Assembly: GCA_037444665.1 (NCBI GenBank)
Contig: JBBILZ010000059.1
Coordinates: 1 to 13,511, forward strand
DNA from: a candidate division WOR-3 bacterium
GTDB lineage: Bacteria; Hydrothermota; Tepidihabitantia; SM23-42; JAOAFX01
Reading direction: 5' to 3'
Length of the DNA: 13,511 bases
Shown here: positions 1,575-11,455 of the stretch, in pieces
Layout: every line of letters begins with the position of its first letter
Numbering within the stretch: position 1 is the first letter of the stretch
Made by a program: the position numbers and the translations under genes
Notes under the pieces: generated by a model
What the model saw: the letters and a program-made list of their open reading frames with translations, nothing else
What the model was told of the DNA's origin: nothing
Databases searched by the model: none

Positions 1575-2308
1575 TGATGATATTAATATTATTTTCCCAG
1601 TTTGTGCTTGCTGAATCGTTATTTGCAAAAAGATATTATGACCTGGCATCCATTGAATATCAAAGGATGTTCTTTTTTGATACTTCTGCTTATAATAATT
1701 TTCAATTACGGCTCAATTACACAATCGCTGTTCTAAATCAAGATTTTTTCAAAGGTTATGAAGAGGTTGAGAAATTATTCCGCGACTTTCCGGAGATTGA
1801 TACCGAATCAAAGGTCATTTTGGGCAGGGAATCCTATAATTTAGGGAATTATGATATTGCGGTCAATATTTTAAAGTCAACACCAGAAAAGAGATTATTG
1901 GGTCTCTCTTATTTGTTCAGCGGGCAATATTCAAATGCCCTTAAAGAATTCCAGATTTTAGATGGGGTGCTTGCTCAGGAAATTGAGGATTTTATTAACC
2001 GGCCTAAAAAATCGGTCACCAGGGCAATGCTCTTTTCATCAATCCTGCCTGGCACTGGTGAAATTTATGCAGGTAATGTAAAACAGGGCATCCAGGATTT
2101 TTTGCTCACCTCTTTAAGTGGTTTTATATTATATAACTCAATTAAAAATAAAAAATATGTGGATGCGGGAATAATATTCAGTTTTCTCTTTAATCGCTTC
2201 TATTTTGGCTCCATCTCAAATGCCGGGCGTATTGCCCAGATGGCCAATGAAAAAACAGAAATGCAATGGTTAGATTATATAAAAAATAAATATCCAATAA
2301 AAAACTAA
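1574..2308 (+). CDS. TPR-repeat protein with C-terminal membrane region, paralogue of the upstream gene
   Basis: TGATG overlap with previous stop; AESLF...YYDLASIEY, LGNYDIAV; KKS...LFSSILPGTGEIYAG motif parallels the upstream protein. Confidence 0.7.
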   Translation: MMILILFSQFVLAESLFAKRYYDLASIEYQRMFFFDTSAYNNFQLRLNYTIAVLNQDFFKGYEEVEKLFRDFPEIDTESKVILGRESYNLGNYDIAVNILKSTPEKRLLGLSYLFSGQYSNALKEFQILDGVLAQEIEDFINRPKKSVTRAMLFSSILPGTGEIYAGNVKQGIQDFLLTSLSGFILYNSIKNKKYVDAGIIFSFLFNRFYFGSISNAGRIAQMANEKTEMQWLDYIKNKYPIKN

Positions 2309-2334
2309 GGATGTGATTTTGTTTTAAACATCCT
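2308..2334 (+). terminator. Possible terminator hairpin after the TPR operon
   Basis: AGGATGT (2308-2314) / ACATCCT (2328-2334) 7-bp inverted repeat directly after the stop; no clear U-tract. Confidence 0.3.
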
Positions 2335-2338
2335 GGGC

Positions 2339-2366
2339 TTGACTTTCAAAGATTTTTTCGTATAAT
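2339..2366 (+). promoter_or_regulatory. Sigma70-type promoter, likely native promoter of the etf operon (now separated from etfB by IS110)
   Basis: TTGACT-N16-TATAAT; the next host gene on + is etfB once the IS is removed. Confidence 0.7.
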
Positions 2367-2513
2367 AAATGCATAAAGAGAATATCGGCGATAACCAATT
2401 TTGATTTTAATCAGAGCCTTGGGAAATTTTTTTATTTTTCCCAGGAATGGCATTCTCTTAACAAGCATTTTCCCAATAGCTTTATGGAAGTGCCTGAAAT
2501 ATACCTGAAGGAG

Positions 2514-3740
2514 TCAACTATGAAGAATTGGCGCCGGAATCAGAGGTGATTCAGGATGACGAATATCAGAGAAGGTAATTTTTCTGTTGAGCAGGGTATA
2601 GAGGACGCGCAGGAGTTTGTTTGCGGTGGCGATAACGGCTTTTTTATGTTTCATTCCCTGTTTCCTTTTCCGTTCGTAGTAGATACGAAACATTTGGGTG
2701 TAAAGGATAACATCCTGGGTTATCTGATAGATTGTCCGGCGCAGATGGCGGTTACCTCGTTTGGAGATTTTATATTGACCTTTGAATTTTCCGGATTCTT
2801 GAATGATTGGATCAATGCCTGTGCCGGCGATGATTTTTTTATGGGATGGGATATTCTCAATAGTTGGCATTTCAGCGATGAAGTTAGCGGCGGAAAGTTC
2901 ACCAATACCCGGCACCGAAGTGAGGATATTCATCTGTTCTTGATGGCTGGTATTTACTTTTTCAATGAATTTTGGCTTGAGCCGAGCCAATTCTTCTTCC
3001 AATTTAAAAAGTCTTTTGATGCAACTTTTCAGGATTTCCTCTCGGTTATCATCGTCAATACTGATGGTATTGTGAGTTATTTCTATAACTTCGGTGGCGG
3101 TGAGTCTTATTTTTCGGCCTTTGCCACGGGAAATTTTTATAATGATTTCGGTGATTCTTTCCTGATTCATTTCTCGGGCGACTCTTGCGGAAGGGATTTC
3201 CAGCAGGAATTCAAGCATGGTTTTGGTGAGGATGTTATATTTTGTTCCCAGTTCGTTGAAGATATTGAAGGTGATTTGTTTGATTCGGTTTTTAAGTTTG
3301 GCGATTTCCTGGGCGATTATTTCATATTCTCGGCCGAGGAGTTTAGTGGAATTGGTGGTGGTATAGTTTTTGATTTTGTCGGGGTTTTTGAGCAAGAAGC
3401 TGGCGATGGTTTTTGCCGAGATTTTGTCGGTAGTGGTTTTTCGCAAGGTGTTTGCTTTTTTGAAGTTTTTGACCAGCAGGGGATTGAGGAGTGTGATATT
3501 ATAGCCTCTATTGGTAAGGAAATTGAGGATATTGATATGGTAGCTGCCGGTGGATTCAATACCGATTGCGAGGTCTTGTGGGTTGCCGATGGTTTGCAGG
3601 TATTCAAGGATTTCGTTAAATCCTTCTTTGGTTTGAGAGAATCTTTTTTGGTTGATAATTTTTTCTTCTGTGTCAAGGACACAGAGGTCCAGGGTATTAA
3701 GGGATGCATCTATGCCGATAAAATATTTATAATCAGGCAT
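2514..3740 (-). CDS. IS110 family transposase/recombinase (DEDD RuvC-like plus Tnp20 domain)
   Basis: FIGID (D11), IESTGSYH (E62), LLNP, KTTTDKISA (D105, S108), SVPGIG, GIDP..QESG (S316), ISKRGNRHLRR, AVIATANKLLRVLY; SD AAGGAGG upstream of the ATG. Confidence 0.95.
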   Translation of the reverse strand: MPDYKYFIGIDASLNTLDLCVLDTEEKIINQKRFSQTKEGFNEILEYLQTIGNPQDLAIGIESTGSYHINILNFLTNRGYNITLLNPLLVKNFKKANTLRKTTTDKISAKTIASFLLKNPDKIKNYTTTNSTKLLGREYEIIAQEIAKLKNRIKQITFNIFNELGTKYNILTKTMLEFLLEIPSARVAREMNQERITEIIIKISRGKGRKIRLTATEVIEITHNTISIDDDNREEILKSCIKRLFKLEEELARLKPKFIEKVNTSHQEQMNILTSVPGIGELSAANFIAEMPTIENIPSHKKIIAGTGIDPIIQESGKFKGQYKISKRGNRHLRRTIYQITQDVILYTQMFRIYYERKRKQGMKHKKAVIATANKLLRVLYTLLNRKITFSDIRHPESPLIPAPILHS

Positions 3741-3766
3741 GGTGGGGCCTCCTTTTTTGCCTTAAA

Positions 3767-3924
3767 TGGATTAAATAATGGAAACAGGATGCTTTCTCTT
3801 CCATCCTCCAAAGTGATCCGGGATCTATGTCCCAACCAACTTATTGGGAATGGAGAAAGCAGGGGACAGACTCCTTCACGGGCTCTTGGCCCAGGTCGTA
3901 TGTCGTCCCCCTGTTTCCAATCCA
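3767..3924 (-). ncRNA. Putative bridge RNA of the IS110 element
   Basis: Non-coding end 5' of the recombinase with nested stems (given on +): GGAAACAGG 3780-3788/CCTGTTTCC 3910-3918; TGCTTTCTC 3790-3798/GAGAAAGCA 3853-3861; GGGGAC 3862-3867/GTCCCC 3905-3910; GGGC 3880-3883/GCCC 3889-3892. Loop sequences match the target and donor. Exact ends unknown. Confidence 0.8.
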
Positions 3925-3962
3925 TCAATTTTTGTGGCGGATTAAGTTCCATTAGTTCCATA

Positions 3963-3998
3963 ATTATATCAATATTATATCCAAATTCAACATAGGAG
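3963..3998 (-). promoter_or_regulatory. IS110 left-end promoter elements
   Basis: Two TATAAT boxes on minus (3974-3979 and 3963-3968); internal TTGAAT(3985-3990)-N16-TATAAT; the circle junction would give TTGACT-N17-TATAAT. Confidence 0.7.
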
Positions 3999-4003
3999 GT
4001 CAT

Positions 4004-4774
4004 TTGAATATCATTGTCTGCATAAAAAGGGTGCCTCAGACTGCTGAGGCAGATGTAAAAGTTGATGTTTCAGGTAAGGATATAGTTAAAGACCGTCTCG
4101 CCTTTGATATGAATGAGTCAGATACATACGCATTAGAACAGGCAATTTTACTAAAAGAAAAACACGGTGGGACAGTTACAGCCATCAGTCTTGGTTATCC
4201 TGATACTGAGGATACTTTGAGAATTGCCCTGGCAAAGGGGGCAGATACGGCAATCAGAATAAAGGCTGAGGAATTTGGCGAGATTGATGGTTATAAGACG
4301 GCAAAGGTTCTCAGTTCAGTAATAAAAACTTTTCCTTTTGACTTAATACTGACAGGCTGTATGTCAACTGATTATGCCTATTCACTTGTTGGCCAGACAC
4401 TCGCTGAACTTGTTGGAGTTCCTCATGCTACACTCGTTACAAAACTTGAGATTAATGACAATCGTGCACAGGTATATCGGGAACTTGAGGGTGGACTATT
4501 AGAACATCTGGATATTACCTTGCCGTTTCTGGCAACAATTCAAACAGGAATTAATACTCCACGCTTTGCTTCACTCATTGCAATCCGCAGGGCTGCGAGC
4601 AAAGAGATAAAGGTGCTTGGCAGTGCTGATATTGGACAGGACATTCTTGCCAATACAATACTTGAAGAATTGTTCGTTCCTCCAGTTGGCAAACGGGCAG
4701 AGATTCTCACTGGATCAGTGGATGAAGTGGCAACAAAATTATCTACGGTTATAAAAGATAAAGGCTTAATATAA
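4004..4774 (+). CDS. etfB: Electron transfer flavoprotein subunit beta
   Basis: MNIIVCIKRVP, NESDTYALEQA, ALAKGAD, DLILTG, RELEGG, INTPRFAS; TTG start after AGGAGG. Confidence 0.95.
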   Translation: MNIIVCIKRVPQTAEADVKVDVSGKDIVKDRLAFDMNESDTYALEQAILLKEKHGGTVTAISLGYPDTEDTLRIALAKGADTAIRIKAEEFGEIDGYKTAKVLSSVIKTFPFDLILTGCMSTDYAYSLVGQTLAELVGVPHATLVTKLEINDNRAQVYRELEGGLLEHLDITLPFLATIQTGINTPRFASLIAIRRAASKEIKVLGSADIGQDILANTILEELFVPPVGKRAEILTGSVDEVATKLSTVIKDKGLI

Positions 4775-4783
4775 GGAGGCTCA

Positions 4784-5764
4784 ATGAATAAAATTCTTAC
4801 TCTAATAGAACACCGTCAGGGCACAATTCGTGATATTACATTTGAATTGTTAACCTTTGCTAACAAAATCGCTACTGAGTTGAATACAAAATCCACTGCA
4901 GTGATTTTAGGACATAATACCGATGGCCTGGTTGCACAATTAAAAAGTTATTCCCATAGCATAATTGTAATGGACAATGCAGTATTCAAAGATTTTAATG
5001 CAGAAGTTTATCAAATGGCTCTGGCAGAGATTATCAGTAAAGAAAGTCCATTTTTGGTATTGGTTGGCCATACCGCATTTGGAATGGATTTGGGTCCTGC
5101 CCTTGCCACTCAATTAAATATACCTTTTGCTACAGATTGTCTTGATATAAAAGTCACAGACAGTAAAATAACAGTTATAAGGTCAATGTATGATGGCAAA
5201 TTGAATGCAAGAATTTTATTAAAGGATAGTCCATCATATTTGGTGACTTATCGTAGTGGAAACACACCGGTGGAAGCGGGCAATCTTGATGCCGAAATCA
5301 TAAAAATTGAAGCACCAATCAATGTTCAGCCAGAATACAGAAGATTTGTTGAATACATTGAGGCTGCGGTTGGTGCGATTGATATTACCAAAGCAGACAT
5401 TATTGTTTCTGTAGGCAGAGGTATTAAAGATAAAGCGAACCTACCACTGATAGAAGATTTTGCAAAGGCAATTGGTGGTGTCATTGGTTGCACCAGGCCG
5501 GTCGTTGATGCAGGCTGGTTGCCCAAAGAACACCAGGTGGGTTCATCAGGCAAGACTGTTAAACCGAAACTGTATATTGCCCTCGGTATCTCTGGCGCAT
5601 TTCAGCACATAAGCGGAATGAAGAATTCAGATACTATTATTGCAATTAACAAAGACCCTAATGCTCCAATCTTCAATGAAGCAGACTACGGAATTGTAGA
5701 AGACCTGTTTAAAGTGGTACCGGTTTTGAAGAATAAGATACTTGAGATAAAACAGGCGAAATGA
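4784..5764 (+). CDS. etfA: Electron transfer flavoprotein subunit alpha
   Basis: ADIIVSVGRG, GCTRPVVDAGWLP...QVGSSGKTVKPKLYIALGISGAFQH...IAINKDPNAPIF; SD AAGGAGG. Confidence 0.96.
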   Translation: MNKILTLIEHRQGTIRDITFELLTFANKIATELNTKSTAVILGHNTDGLVAQLKSYSHSIIVMDNAVFKDFNAEVYQMALAEIISKESPFLVLVGHTAFGMDLGPALATQLNIPFATDCLDIKVTDSKITVIRSMYDGKLNARILLKDSPSYLVTYRSGNTPVEAGNLDAEIIKIEAPINVQPEYRRFVEYIEAAVGAIDITKADIIVSVGRGIKDKANLPLIEDFAKAIGGVIGCTRPVVDAGWLPKEHQVGSSGKTVKPKLYIALGISGAFQHISGMKNSDTIIAINKDPNAPIFNEADYGIVEDLFKVVPVLKNKILEIKQAK

Positions 5765-10017: not shown

Positions 10018-11217
10018 TTATGGTGGCTGGTAATGTCTAAGGCTATTCAATTCTTTTGAGAAATAAACAATCTCAACCAATTTCATTGGTTTATGGCATA
10101 CTGGACAGGCCAATGGGTCAATGTCGGTGAGTGTGATATGTCTTGAGCGCCAATTTTCCTGGTTGATTAACTGTTGTTCCCGGTTAAGAGCGGCAAAGAC
10201 CAAGGGCAACAATTCTTTTTTTGCCCGATTAGCCAGGGCACCATAATAGCGGATCTGACGGAAATGGGGTGGCAGAATATGTTGAATCAAAAGGCTGATG
10301 AAATCTTCAACCCGAACGATTTCTCTGATTTCTGGTTCATCATGGGGTTTGACGGAGAAACTTACACACCATTGATTAGGTCCAAACTCTTCACGCTGTC
10401 GGTAATCAAGGATTCTACTTTCTGCGATTGGTGGTCTTTTTGCGTAGCGGGCAGTATAGCTGAGGGAAAATTTTTCTGTGGGTAGTTCTTTTGAGTCATG
10501 GACATACCAATTGATTTCCAAAAGGGGATTAAAGAAGCTATCAAGGCCTTGTGGATCTCTGAAGACCTCGAGTTCTCCACAACTGGAGTGGTGTTGGAGG
10601 TATTGGGTGATTTTTTCTTTAAGGAATGTGATAGTTAAGGCGCGGTATCTTTTATGGAGCATGACAAAGGGTATGTAGCTACATCTTTTCCAGCGGTTAG
10701 TTGGTTGGTTATTTTCTATGATTAGGCCGCCAGCGGTTATTAAGAGATGGATATGACAATTAAAGTTGACTCTTCGGCCAAAGGTATGGACTGCTGCGAT
10801 AATCAAGGGTAGGAGGTGTTTTTCTTTATAAAAGGAGAGGACGGTTTGGCTTGCAGCTTTGAATAGGGAATTGATTAAGAAGGGATATTGTTGGAATAAT
10901 CCGCGTAAGGTATCTGGGATGGTGAAGCAGATGTGATGGAAGGGTGTTTTGGGGAAGATGGCTTGGACCTTGGCGATGAGTTTATCAGTCAGTTTTTTGC
11001 CGCAGGAGTTACAGAAATTGGATTTACAGGTATTAGGGATGAAACGGCATTGCCAGGGGTGGTCTGGGCACTGATAGACATGGTAGCCCAATTTTTCTGG
11101 GTCTCGGCAGGAAAGCATTTTGTTGACGGTGTCGATGACATATTGGGGGAGGTTTTGGTGTTTAGCGAGGTAATCGGGCCAATGGCGTTTAAAGATTTGT
11201 TTAATTGAATAAGGCAT
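10018..11217 (-). CDS. IS91 family transposase
   Basis: Zn-binding CRDP..LGY..YQC...CKSNFCNSCG, HHICFTIP, HUH region VHTFGRRVNFNCHIHLL, Y2 motif YTARYAKRPP, QHILPPHFRQIRYYG, C-terminal CPVC. Start placed at MPYSIKQIF. Confidence 0.93.
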   Translation of the reverse strand: MPYSIKQIFKRHWPDYLAKHQNLPQYVIDTVNKMLSCRDPEKLGYHVYQCPDHPWQCRFIPNTCKSNFCNSCGKKLTDKLIAKVQAIFPKTPFHHICFTIPDTLRGLFQQYPFLINSLFKAASQTVLSFYKEKHLLPLIIAAVHTFGRRVNFNCHIHLLITAGGLIIENNQPTNRWKRCSYIPFVMLHKRYRALTITFLKEKITQYLQHHSSCGELEVFRDPQGLDSFFNPLLEINWYVHDSKELPTEKFSLSYTARYAKRPPIAESRILDYRQREEFGPNQWCVSFSVKPHDEPEIREIVRVEDFISLLIQHILPPHFRQIRYYGALANRAKKELLPLVFAALNREQQLINQENWRSRHITLTDIDPLACPVCHKPMKLVEIVYFSKELNSLRHYQPP

Positions 11218-11227
11218 AAGGTATATT

Positions 11228-11455
11228 ATGGCGATAATTAACTTTAAATGCAATAGGTGTGATGAGGTATTTGATTGTGATGTGGGTGAGATAAATTTTG
11301 AGTTGGTTAATTGGCGACCACAGTTTGAGCGAGAAATTGTGTGTCCGAACTGTGGTAAGTTAACTTTGGACGATGTTGAATTGACTGAGTTTGGTCAGTC
11401 ACAACTAACTGAATTATGGTGGATAGATGCTGAAAGAAAACAGCGTAAAAAATAA
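11228..11455 (+). CDS. Small Zn-ribbon protein (IS91 passenger)
   Basis: 75 aa; CNRC...CPNCG; basic C-terminus; divergent from tnp with only 10 nt between start codons. Confidence 0.65.
   Translation: MAIINFKCNRCDEVFDCDVGEINFELVNWRPQFEREIVCPNCGKLTLDDVELTEFGQSQLTELWWIDAERKQRKK

Follow-up and report, generated by a model that had tools for sequence, protein, structure and literature searches.

The antisense strand of a Shine-Dalgarno-targeting IS110 element is held open and may make the insertion translationally transparent

Introduction

Why should the strand opposite a recombinase gene read as a single open frame across almost the whole of a mobile element, its non-coding end included? The question is raised by a contig from a candidate division WOR-3 bacterium (JBBILZ010000059.1, our contig C59), which we analysed at its complete length of 13,511 nucleotides (nt; the 13.5-kb 'window') and which belongs to an assembly totalling 2.54 Mb at 37.7% guanine-plus-cytosine (GC) content. 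In this window an IS110-family element lies just upstream of etfB and in the opposite orientation, and the etfB strand carries an antisense open reading frame (ORF) of 479 codons that crosses both the recombinase gene and the non-coding region preceding it. The initial annotation of this DNA had suggested that ribosomes could cover the insertion on the host messenger RNA (mRNA) and be handed on to etfB, limiting polarity. Here we compare the element with its relatives and find that the frame is under selection to stay open, that openness goes with insertion at Shine-Dalgarno (SD) sequences and that the encoded peptide is under no protein-level constraint. We then weigh what such a frame may be for.

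Results

An open frame spans the strand opposite an IS110 recombinase

The element occupies 1483 bp (positions 2514 to 3996, minus strand) under a model in which the recombination core is CT (AG on the plus strand), obtained by comparison with empty sites on contigs C84 and C26 of the same assembly; its boundaries are ambiguous inside the 5-nt AGGAG common to both junctions. It encodes a recombinase of 408 amino acids (aa; 2514 to 3740, minus strand) whose stop codon forms the element's first three bases. The protein has the N-terminal DEDD RuvC-like domain and the C-terminal Tnp domain that define the IS110 family (PF01548, DEDD_Tnp_IS110, 7e-26, residues 8-156; PF02371, Transposase_20, 2.2e-21, residues 271-356). 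The two ends are unequal, with a non-coding left end of 256 nt (3741 to 3996, minus strand), which contains -10 boxes, a bridge-RNA-like structure and the recombinase's own GGAGG, against a right end of about 0 nt.

Read on the plus strand, the insertion is preceded by an orphaned host SD, AAGGAG (2508 to 2513), composed of the left-hand target bases AAGG and the core AG (2512 to 2513). An ATG 6 nt past this SD opens a 9-codon mini-ORF, MKNWRRNQR (2520 to 2549), whose stop codon TGA (2547 to 2549) lies within an SD-like GAGGTGA (2543 to 2549). The 479-codon ORF follows (2556 to 3995), codon-aligned antisense to the recombinase, and its stop codon TAG (3993 to 3995) falls inside TAGGAGGT, ending 1 nt before the end of the element. 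Overlapping this stop is a rebuilt SD, AGGAGG (3994 to 3999), to which the element end contributes AGG, the core AG (3997 to 3998) and the target the final G. The TTG start codon of etfB (electron transfer flavoprotein beta; PF01012; 4004 to 4774, plus strand) comes 8 nt after the stop of the long ORF. The initial annotation had described this arrangement from the sequence, and all of its positions, from the AAGGAG at 2508-2513 and the ATG codons at 2520 and 2556 to the TAG at 3993-3995 and the TTG at 4004, are confirmed.

Codon usage accounts poorly for the open frame

In this register, antisense stops would correspond to TTA, CTA and TCA codons in the recombinase gene. Its 41 leucine codons include no TTA and no CTA, and its 20 serine codons include a single TCA, which is the TGA at 2547. 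The avoidance of these codons reported initially therefore holds apart from that one TCA, but the counts then given, 39 leucine and 18 serine codons, were slightly low. Among 1034 long ORFs of the host, by comparison, TTA and CTA make up 33% of leucine codons and TCA 31% of serine codons. Codon nulls, which the initial annotation had named as the check on chance, gave 19.7 expected antisense stops under host usage, where one is observed (P(<=1) = 1.3e-9), and 8.5 under the usage of related IS110 genes without the feature (TTA plus CTA 12.3%, TCA 17.3%; P(<=1) = 1.1e-3). Codons ending in A are used normally for other amino acids in the same gene (AAA for 40 of 41 lysines, GAA for 28 of 30 glutamates), so there is no general avoidance of A at third positions.

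Beyond the recombinase start the frame runs on through 84 non-coding codons, a stretch that was stop-free in 42 of 5000 shuffles; the other two plus-strand frames over the same codons contain 5 and 2 stops. The window also offers an internal contrast in an IS91-type transposase gene (Y2_Tnp and Zn_Tnp_IS91; 10018 to 11253, minus strand). As had been noted from the outset, it has no full-length open antisense frame, the longest plus-strand ORFs within it being 103 and 91 codons.

Openness is maintained in diverged relatives

Homologues were retrieved by alignment of 27 recombinases; species-representative genomes and metagenomes contributed 79 loci each, which makes 159 with the window. We kept the 150 loci with a recombinase ORF of at least 340 codons, representing 137 distinct proteins, and dropped 9 truncated ones. 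Twenty-two elements, with 35-84% identity to the window's protein and 35-54% GC, have 0-2 antisense stops and form what we call the open set. The stop-free run in these elements covers a median of 99.7% of the recombinase gene; it is shortest in L008 (78%), whose frame contains one internal stop. The remaining stops are confined to the last 11 recombinase codons, except for the internal stop of L008 and for L005, a contig-truncated gene whose one stop lies 23 codons from its readable end. The other 115 relatives carry 3-25 antisense stops, and their longest stop-free run has a median of 26% and a maximum of 75%. This is the pattern that the relay proposal had named as its comparative test: a frame open in diverged SD-targeting homologues, here 22 elements in three clades, and not in others.

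The same contrast is seen codon by codon. Across the open set, TTA or CTA was found at 17 of 940 leucine codons and TCA at 5 of 840 serine codons, compared with 12.3% and 17.3% in the 115 relatives. At 26 leucine columns conserved in the open set, at least three different codons are used at 24, and TTA or CTA accounts for 2 of 495 codons against 260 of 2416 in closed relatives at the same columns; at 19 conserved serine columns the figures for TCA are 0 of 348 and 277 of 1401. Between clades, identity at four-fold sites is down to 0.37-0.43 where amino-acid identity is 30-60%, which is close to saturation. Because stop codons are avoided despite near-saturated synonymous turnover, the open frame is maintained by selection and not merely inherited.

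In a maximum-likelihood tree, the open elements fall into three groups (the window's group of 5, the pair L097 and L132, and a group of 15) placed among closed lineages. Three state changes are needed to explain this distribution, and well-supported branches force at least two of them.

Selection on the frame extends through the non-coding left end

The left end encodes no recombinase, and the frame is nonetheless kept there. Of 19 open-set elements, 13 have no stop in the aligned frame along the 74 codons that precede the recombinase gene, compared with 0 of 19 for each of the other two frames, which average 4.4 and 5.2 stops. Among 103 closed relatives, the number of stops averages 2.9-3.0 in each of the three left-end frames, and 5 of these relatives have the aligned frame open. 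Left-end lengths (259, 241, 238, 235, 232, 229 nt and so on) are 1 mod 3 in all 15 elements measured, and gaps in the left-end alignment are 3, 6 or 18 nt long, the sole exception being L088, which has lost 1 nt. Another sequencing run contains a related variant whose left end differs from the window's by indels summing to 18 nt. Where the right junction could be read (18 elements), the terminal TAG shares the aligned frame in 16, and in 14 the antisense ORF reaches it without interruption.

We considered an N-terminal extension of the recombinase as the cause of the frame-preserving indels and rejected it, because a stop closes the recombinase frame 7 codons ahead of its ATG in the window (7-8 codons ahead in L084 and L007). 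Separately, contigs of a related strain (run X2) show a 1-nt deletion and a 1-nt insertion at window positions 3827 and 3887, 60 nt apart with a net change of zero; if both lie on one molecule, the pair would be a compensated frameshift.

The open frame goes with an SD target

Written on the host strand, with a slash at the junction, open-set elements have left junctions of the form ..(A)AGGAG/TCAACTA.. and right junctions of the form ..TAG(TAG)GAGG followed by a start codon. All 19 open-set elements with a readable left junction have an SD-like flank ending in GAG or GAT (GGAG in 17) and lie antisense to the host gene. Across the 150 loci, a GGAG left flank was found at 17 open and 1 closed loci, a GAG-like flank at 2 open and 3 closed loci, and any other flank, mostly CAG or TAG, at 0 open and 109 closed loci; the flank was unreadable at 3 open and 15 closed loci. 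The closed loci L134 and L070 represent one element with a GGGGAG flank, which the flank pattern filed under 'other'. Insertion is in one orientation, antisense to the host gene, throughout the open set. On the right, a host start codon lies 4-10 nt past GGAGG in 17 of 17 readable flanks and opens a plausible host ORF in 14 of them, with one indeterminate case at a contig end and two doubtful ones (L013, L097). Since the three open groups lie among closed lineages with at least two forced state changes, the open frame follows the SD target through independent transitions.

Closed homologues, such as L077-L083 (seven copies in one genome) and L091-L096, share the TCAACTA end and have other conserved flanks, ..TTGACT[TA]CAG/ or ..TGTAG/. 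These flanks suggest a repeated extragenic target and not an SD.

Empty sites resolve the junctions and identify two host loci

Two empty sites in the same assembly show what the element's targets look like without it. On C84, a sequence matching window positions 2297-2513 with 2 mismatches runs directly into G-ATTA-ATG, the beginning of a gene for a 69-aa 4Fe-4S ferredoxin whose start is thus preceded by AAGGAGG-ATTA. On C26, an acyl-CoA dehydrogenase gene is followed by an intergenic region ending in AAGGAAGGAGG and then by the etfB start, which is identical to window positions 3994-4109. The AAGGAG at 2508 had initially been taken for a leftover of the etfB RBS (ribosome-binding site), and this part of the claim has to be given up: the same flank leads into ferredoxin on C84, and etfB on C26 has its own AAGGAAGGAGG, so the orphaned SD belongs to the ferredoxin locus. 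The rebuilding of the etfB RBS is real, however: the (T)AGG that closes the element, followed by the AG core and the target G, restores AGGAGG at its native distance from the host start.

A single target model, AAGG-AG-G, in which AG is the core (CT on the recombinase strand), accommodates C84, C26 and the homologue L084, which occupies the orthologous ferredoxin site. Under this model the element extends from TCAACTA.. to ..TAGG, with a left junction AAGG-AG-TCAACTA and a right junction ..TAGG-AG-G... AG stands at the end of the left flank in the window and most homologues, and the junction ..AG/TCAACTA is common to most.

How, then, did the ferredoxin and etfB flanks come to stand on one contig? 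In the likely source run, sequencing depth is about 60 over the element and 20.1 and 17.4 over its flanks, which corresponds to about 3 copies. Logan contigs of that run break at 2513 and 3994 and branch there to the empty ferredoxin site, the empty etfB site, two other left flanks and two other right flanks, and both of the latter have an ATG shortly past GGAGG. The window's contig is most likely an assembly path through this roughly 3-copy repeat that joins two insertion sites, or else a rearranged haplotype; alternatively, the presence of both empty sites in the assembly may reflect a population polymorphic for both insertions. The logic of the junctions is unaffected by the join because every site is an SD.

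Other sequences related to these loci were seen in the same assembly. A second, partial copy of the element (C6:63736-64067; L002 1500-1832), 95% identical, stands at a contig end and is preceded by a promoter-like TTGACT..TATAAT and by AAAAAGGAGG. Its terminal ~40 nt are far more diverged than its interior and lack the TCAAC end, and an SD-driven mini-ORF of 19 codons overlaps the ATG of its long ORF. On C26, a GATACTGC-like motif recurs several times, in direct and inverted orientation, between the acyl-CoA dehydrogenase gene and etfB (L004 1330-1490), and these copies may be an operator array. In the window itself, etfA (4784-5764) lies 3' of etfB.

A candidate anti-polarity relay

These observations can be combined into one mechanism. 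We propose that the window and its open relatives represent bridge-RNA-type IS110 elements whose guide would be set on the SD consensus AAGG-AG-G, such that insertion would always fall between a host RBS and its start codon, with the recombinase opposed to the host gene. Three properties would then give the insertion 'translational transparency'. The terminal TAGG and the AG core would restore AGGAGG at native spacing before the host start; one stop-free host-strand frame would extend across the recombinase gene and the non-coding bridge-RNA end; and the TAG closing this frame would stand 8-15 nt ahead of the host start. Ribosomes would enter near the orphaned SD and cross the entire insertion, in the window's clade by way of a mini-ORF with its ATG 6 nt past the SD, followed by a restart. 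Translation of the element would keep transcription and translation coupled and would melt hairpins. Ribosomes would finally terminate on the rebuilt SD, leaving the downstream gene expressed at low cost to the host, and the peptide would be a by-product.

The exit of such a relay is well placed across the open set, with the antisense stop 8-15 nt before the host start. Of the 19 elements whose left junction is readable, 5 (the window, L084, L085, L006 and L132) have an entry with SD and ATG. In these five, the ATG 6-9 nt past the orphaned SD opens a mini-ORF of 6-21 codons that ends 3-6 nt before, or overlaps, the ATG of the long ORF, a layout of the coupling type. For the window, the ATG at 2556 has GAGG 9 nt upstream in addition to the preceding SD-driven mini-ORF. 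A promoter-like TTGACT-16-TATAAT in host DNA (2339 to 2366, plus strand; 11 of 12 positions agree, as a consensus match only) lies about 145 nt 5' of the orphaned SD and could drive read-through into the element. The genome has a rho gene, and three weak terminator-like sites, hairpins followed by T residues, occur on the host strand inside the element; we count both in favour of the relay.

Several observations weigh against it. The terminator-like hairpins are not significantly enriched (4, against 2.2 +/- 1.7 in shuffles). The read-through RNA contains 25% G and 16% C, and only two 78-nt windows have an excess of C over G of at least 0.1; being G-rich and C-poor, it is probably a poor Rho substrate, and classical Rho loading is not obviously expected. 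The largest clade has ATA at the position of the entry ATG in 13 of 13 elements with a left junction, and its first in-frame ATG, which is conserved, lies 28-43 nt into the element with no clear SD. The first leg of the relay must thus be missing or different there, and as a predicted structure it is documented for the window's type only. Of 18 open-set elements whose right junction could be read, four (L008, L097, L094 and L088) have a premature stop or frameshift, and three closed loci, classed by the left flank alone, have a ..GGAG/TCAAC flank (L109 and L134/L070). Finally, the two flanks of the window come from different loci, and read-through from the promoter-like site at 2339-2366 into etfB may exist in no cell.

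The relay as first proposed thus comes through in part: the comparative tests, the codon nulls and the rebuilt RBS speak for it, and the entry found in only 5 of 19 elements, the G-rich RNA and the foreign left flank speak against it. That the frame is translated, and that its translation suppresses polarity, we infer from sequence comparison. A translationally transparent insertion is to our mind the best explanation of the data, with an even chance of being correct.

In the largest clade (L007, L086, L012, L013 and others), an element-encoded CTCCTT about 18 nt past the orphaned AAGGAG can pair with it. We set this hairpin aside as evidence: it is present in the minimum-free-energy structure of 3 of 4 sequences from the clade, but its z-scores range from -0.3 to +0.4 against shuffles. 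In folding terms it might mask the orphaned SD in this clade, which has no mini-ORF.

Bridge-RNA structure, promoters and a possible role in element regulation

RNAalifold on 13 elements predicted 33 pairs in two conserved stem-loop domains, at about 3912-3791 in the window; compensatory changes occur at 11 of these pairs. The element thus has the long non-coding left end with a predicted structured two-loop RNA that is a defining trait of IS110, together with two further ones, a CT core at both junctions and insertion that is site- and orientation-specific. An Rfam scan of 2300-4200 at E <= 1 matched no family, and the bridge-RNA assignment therefore rests on the alignment fold; guide-like identity between loop segments and junction was seen by eye only.

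The left end also carries two TATAAT -10 boxes (3979-3974 and 3968-3963, minus strand). Joining the recombinase-strand ends in the sequence brings TTGA and the CT core together as TTGACT, 17 nt from TATAAT; among Logan contigs, no such circular junction was seen. In addition, a promoter-like TTGAAT-16-TATAAT with TG lies wholly within the left end (3963-3990, minus strand), and the etfB flank and the left end together form a hybrid ATGACC-18-TATAAT. The integrated copy may transcribe its bridge RNA and recombinase towards incoming host transcription.

Converging transcription of this kind is central to a second explanation, in which the frame is kept for the element's own regulation. Read-through RNA would be complementary to the recombinase mRNA and the bridge RNA, and its translation would either stabilise this antisense RNA, giving durable silencing, or block pairing, so that the element stays active. 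Such a role predicts the same selection signals as the relay and fits the fixed antisense orientation of all open elements. With a promoter-like TTGAAT-16-TATAAT in the left end and TTGACT-17-TATAAT predicted for the circular form, element transcripts must moreover coexist with converging host transcripts, in line with the accessible part of one bridge-RNA study (PMC11208160). Left unexplained are the position of the stop, within the last 4 nt and next to an SD rebuilt at its native spacing from the host start, and the very rebuilding of that SD. Taken as a whole, with both of its variants, we consider this explanation unlikely; an element-centred role and the relay are nevertheless compatible, and both could hold.

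The antisense product shows no protein-level constraint

A Pfam search of the 479-codon ORF matched no family. The part encoded by the left end lacks codon-position periodicity, with mean entropies of 0.40, 0.45 and 0.44 and variable columns numbering 33, 36 and 37 of 74 for the three positions. AlphaFold2, run on an alignment of 18 homologous sequences, returned a mean predicted local distance difference test score (pLDDT) of 25.5 and a predicted template modelling score (pTM) of 0.14. Recognition by a language model (Atlas) gave a value of 870, where 91% of proteins from known families reach 2300. The product is rich in F, G and D, a composition imposed by the sense strand. All this agrees with the initial impression that the product looks non-functional. 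Because there is neither codon periodicity nor a predicted fold, we conclude that selection acts on the open frame, most simply on its being translated, and probably not on the peptide.

Seventeen database clusters (P0122-P0138) of 'hypothetical proteins' with 377-479 aa, 48-85% identity and no Pfam family are this same antisense frame, which gene callers may prefer because it is longer than the real gene. Together with the conservation of the ORF at full length, these 17 further clusters are what a functional protein would lead one to expect, namely a Hed-like product expressed from host signals after insertion and acting in transposition or on the host. There is a precedent in the hed ORF of IS900 as described in the accessible part of PMC8141618. 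The lack of a Pfam family, the pLDDT of 25.5 and pTM of 0.14, the Atlas value of 870, the absence of periodicity where the frame is free of recombinase coding and a composition set by the other strand all count against such a protein. So does the near saturation of synonymous sites in the recombinase, which lets antisense residues drift freely, and we regard a functional product as quite improbable.

Least of all do we credit a chance by-product of recombinase codon choice: in-phase antisense frames are the commonest long 'shadow' ORFs, and related IS110 genes already lie below the host in TTA/CTA (12% against 33%) and TCA (17% against 31%), but P is ~1e-9 (host usage) or ~1e-3 (related-IS usage) for one element, the pattern recurs in 22 elements of 3 clades at 35-54% GC, the frame continues through non-coding DNA with frame-preserving indels to a terminal TAG in frame in 16 of 18, and it is closed in all 115 relatives, nearly all at other targets.

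Discussion

Since 1997 no function has been known for the hed ORF of IS900, which, sitting in a GC-rich genome, could be written off as a shadow ORF. The low-GC relatives described here hold a whole-element frame under clear selection, and lineages with a changed target do not have it. From this follows a testable rule, that the landing site of a transposon dictates what its opposite strand must look like. As read from sequence comparison, this is the first strong comparative evidence for selection on such a frame, a selection that goes with the SD target and is indifferent to the product. An anti-polarity or pass-through role for IS110 antisense ORFs had no earlier proposal or test in the literature we searched, subscription journals lying outside it, where we met only the description of IS900 hed; nor did that literature, within the same limits, describe open antisense frames in low-GC IS110 elements.

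If the relay is real, selection here favours the translation of a long ORF and not its protein, which is rare. It would explain why aiming at the most conserved signal before bacterial genes is affordable for a transposon. It would also bear on the practical use of bridge recombinases, as natural elements would show how 1.5 kb can be placed upstream of a gene that stays expressed. More tentatively, and with the balance tipped slightly against us, we extend the idea to SD-targeting IS110 elements at large, IS900 included, as natural 'non-polar cassettes': their antisense ORF would be selected only for being translated, from an orphaned SD to a rebuilt one, so that insertions ahead of essential or highly expressed genes would be near-neutral, and cost avoidance of this kind would be general among RNA-guided transposons. 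Whatever its role, the frame is an annotation trap: at least 17 database clusters list it as a 'hypothetical protein'.

Among known systems, the closest likeness is to IS900 of Mycobacterium avium subsp. paratuberculosis, which reportedly inserts in one orientation between RBS and start codon. Going by the title of Doran et al. (1997, Microbiology 143:547), IS900 is said to target translation initiation signals. According to the accessible part of PMC8141618, it carries, on the strand opposite its transposase gene, an ORF of unknown function, hed ('host expression dependent'), which extends over the entire element and has neither an RBS nor a start codon of its own. By description, the element studied here shares with it the IS110 family, an ORF opposite the transposase that spans the element (2556-3995 of 2514-3996) and one-orientation insertion into host translation initiation signals, here with a GGAG flank in 17 of 19 elements. 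The differences are equally clear. IS900 is GC-rich, so that in-phase antisense frames open easily, whereas the present elements have 35-54% GC and chance is excluded statistically. The hed ORF is described without an RBS or start, whereas the window's ORF has an ATG at 2556, GAGG 9 nt upstream and an SD-driven mini-ORF before it. Moreover, hed has been read as a gene whose product matters, whereas the evidence here favours translation as such, and openness here follows SD targeting across clades.

IS621 and other IS110 elements with a bridge RNA use targets that resemble repetitive extragenic palindromes (REP-like) or are otherwise extragenic, according to the accessible parts of Durrant et al. 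2024 (PMC11208160) and Siddiquee et al. 2024 (PMC11187229). Our element resembles them in its DEDD/RuvC-like and Tnp domains, in a long left end with two predicted stem-loop domains, in a CT core at both junctions, in a candidate promoter split between the ends and in site- and orientation-specific insertion. It differs in the whole-element antisense frame and the rebuilding of a host signal, which those parts of the two papers (PMC11208160, PMC11187229) do not describe for IS621/IS110: the word 'antisense' is absent from them, and an RBS is mentioned in the seek-RNA paper alone, where it belongs to an engineered cargo gene.

In-phase ('frame -1') shadow ORFs arise in the same register, with antisense TAA, TAG and TGA opposite sense TTA, CTA and TCA. 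Unlike them, the frame described here rests on an avoidance limited to these three codons, is held at saturated synonymous divergence, continues through non-coding DNA and has been lost where sister lineages use other targets.

Engineered non-polar cassettes carry stop codons at the entry and an SD with a start codon at the exit, and so restart downstream translation. The exit of our element is alike in stopping incoming translation and presenting an SD at the right distance for re-initiation. It differs in being part of a natural element, in which the whole insert, and not a short one, would be translatable and the SD is assembled from the element's end and the recombination core.

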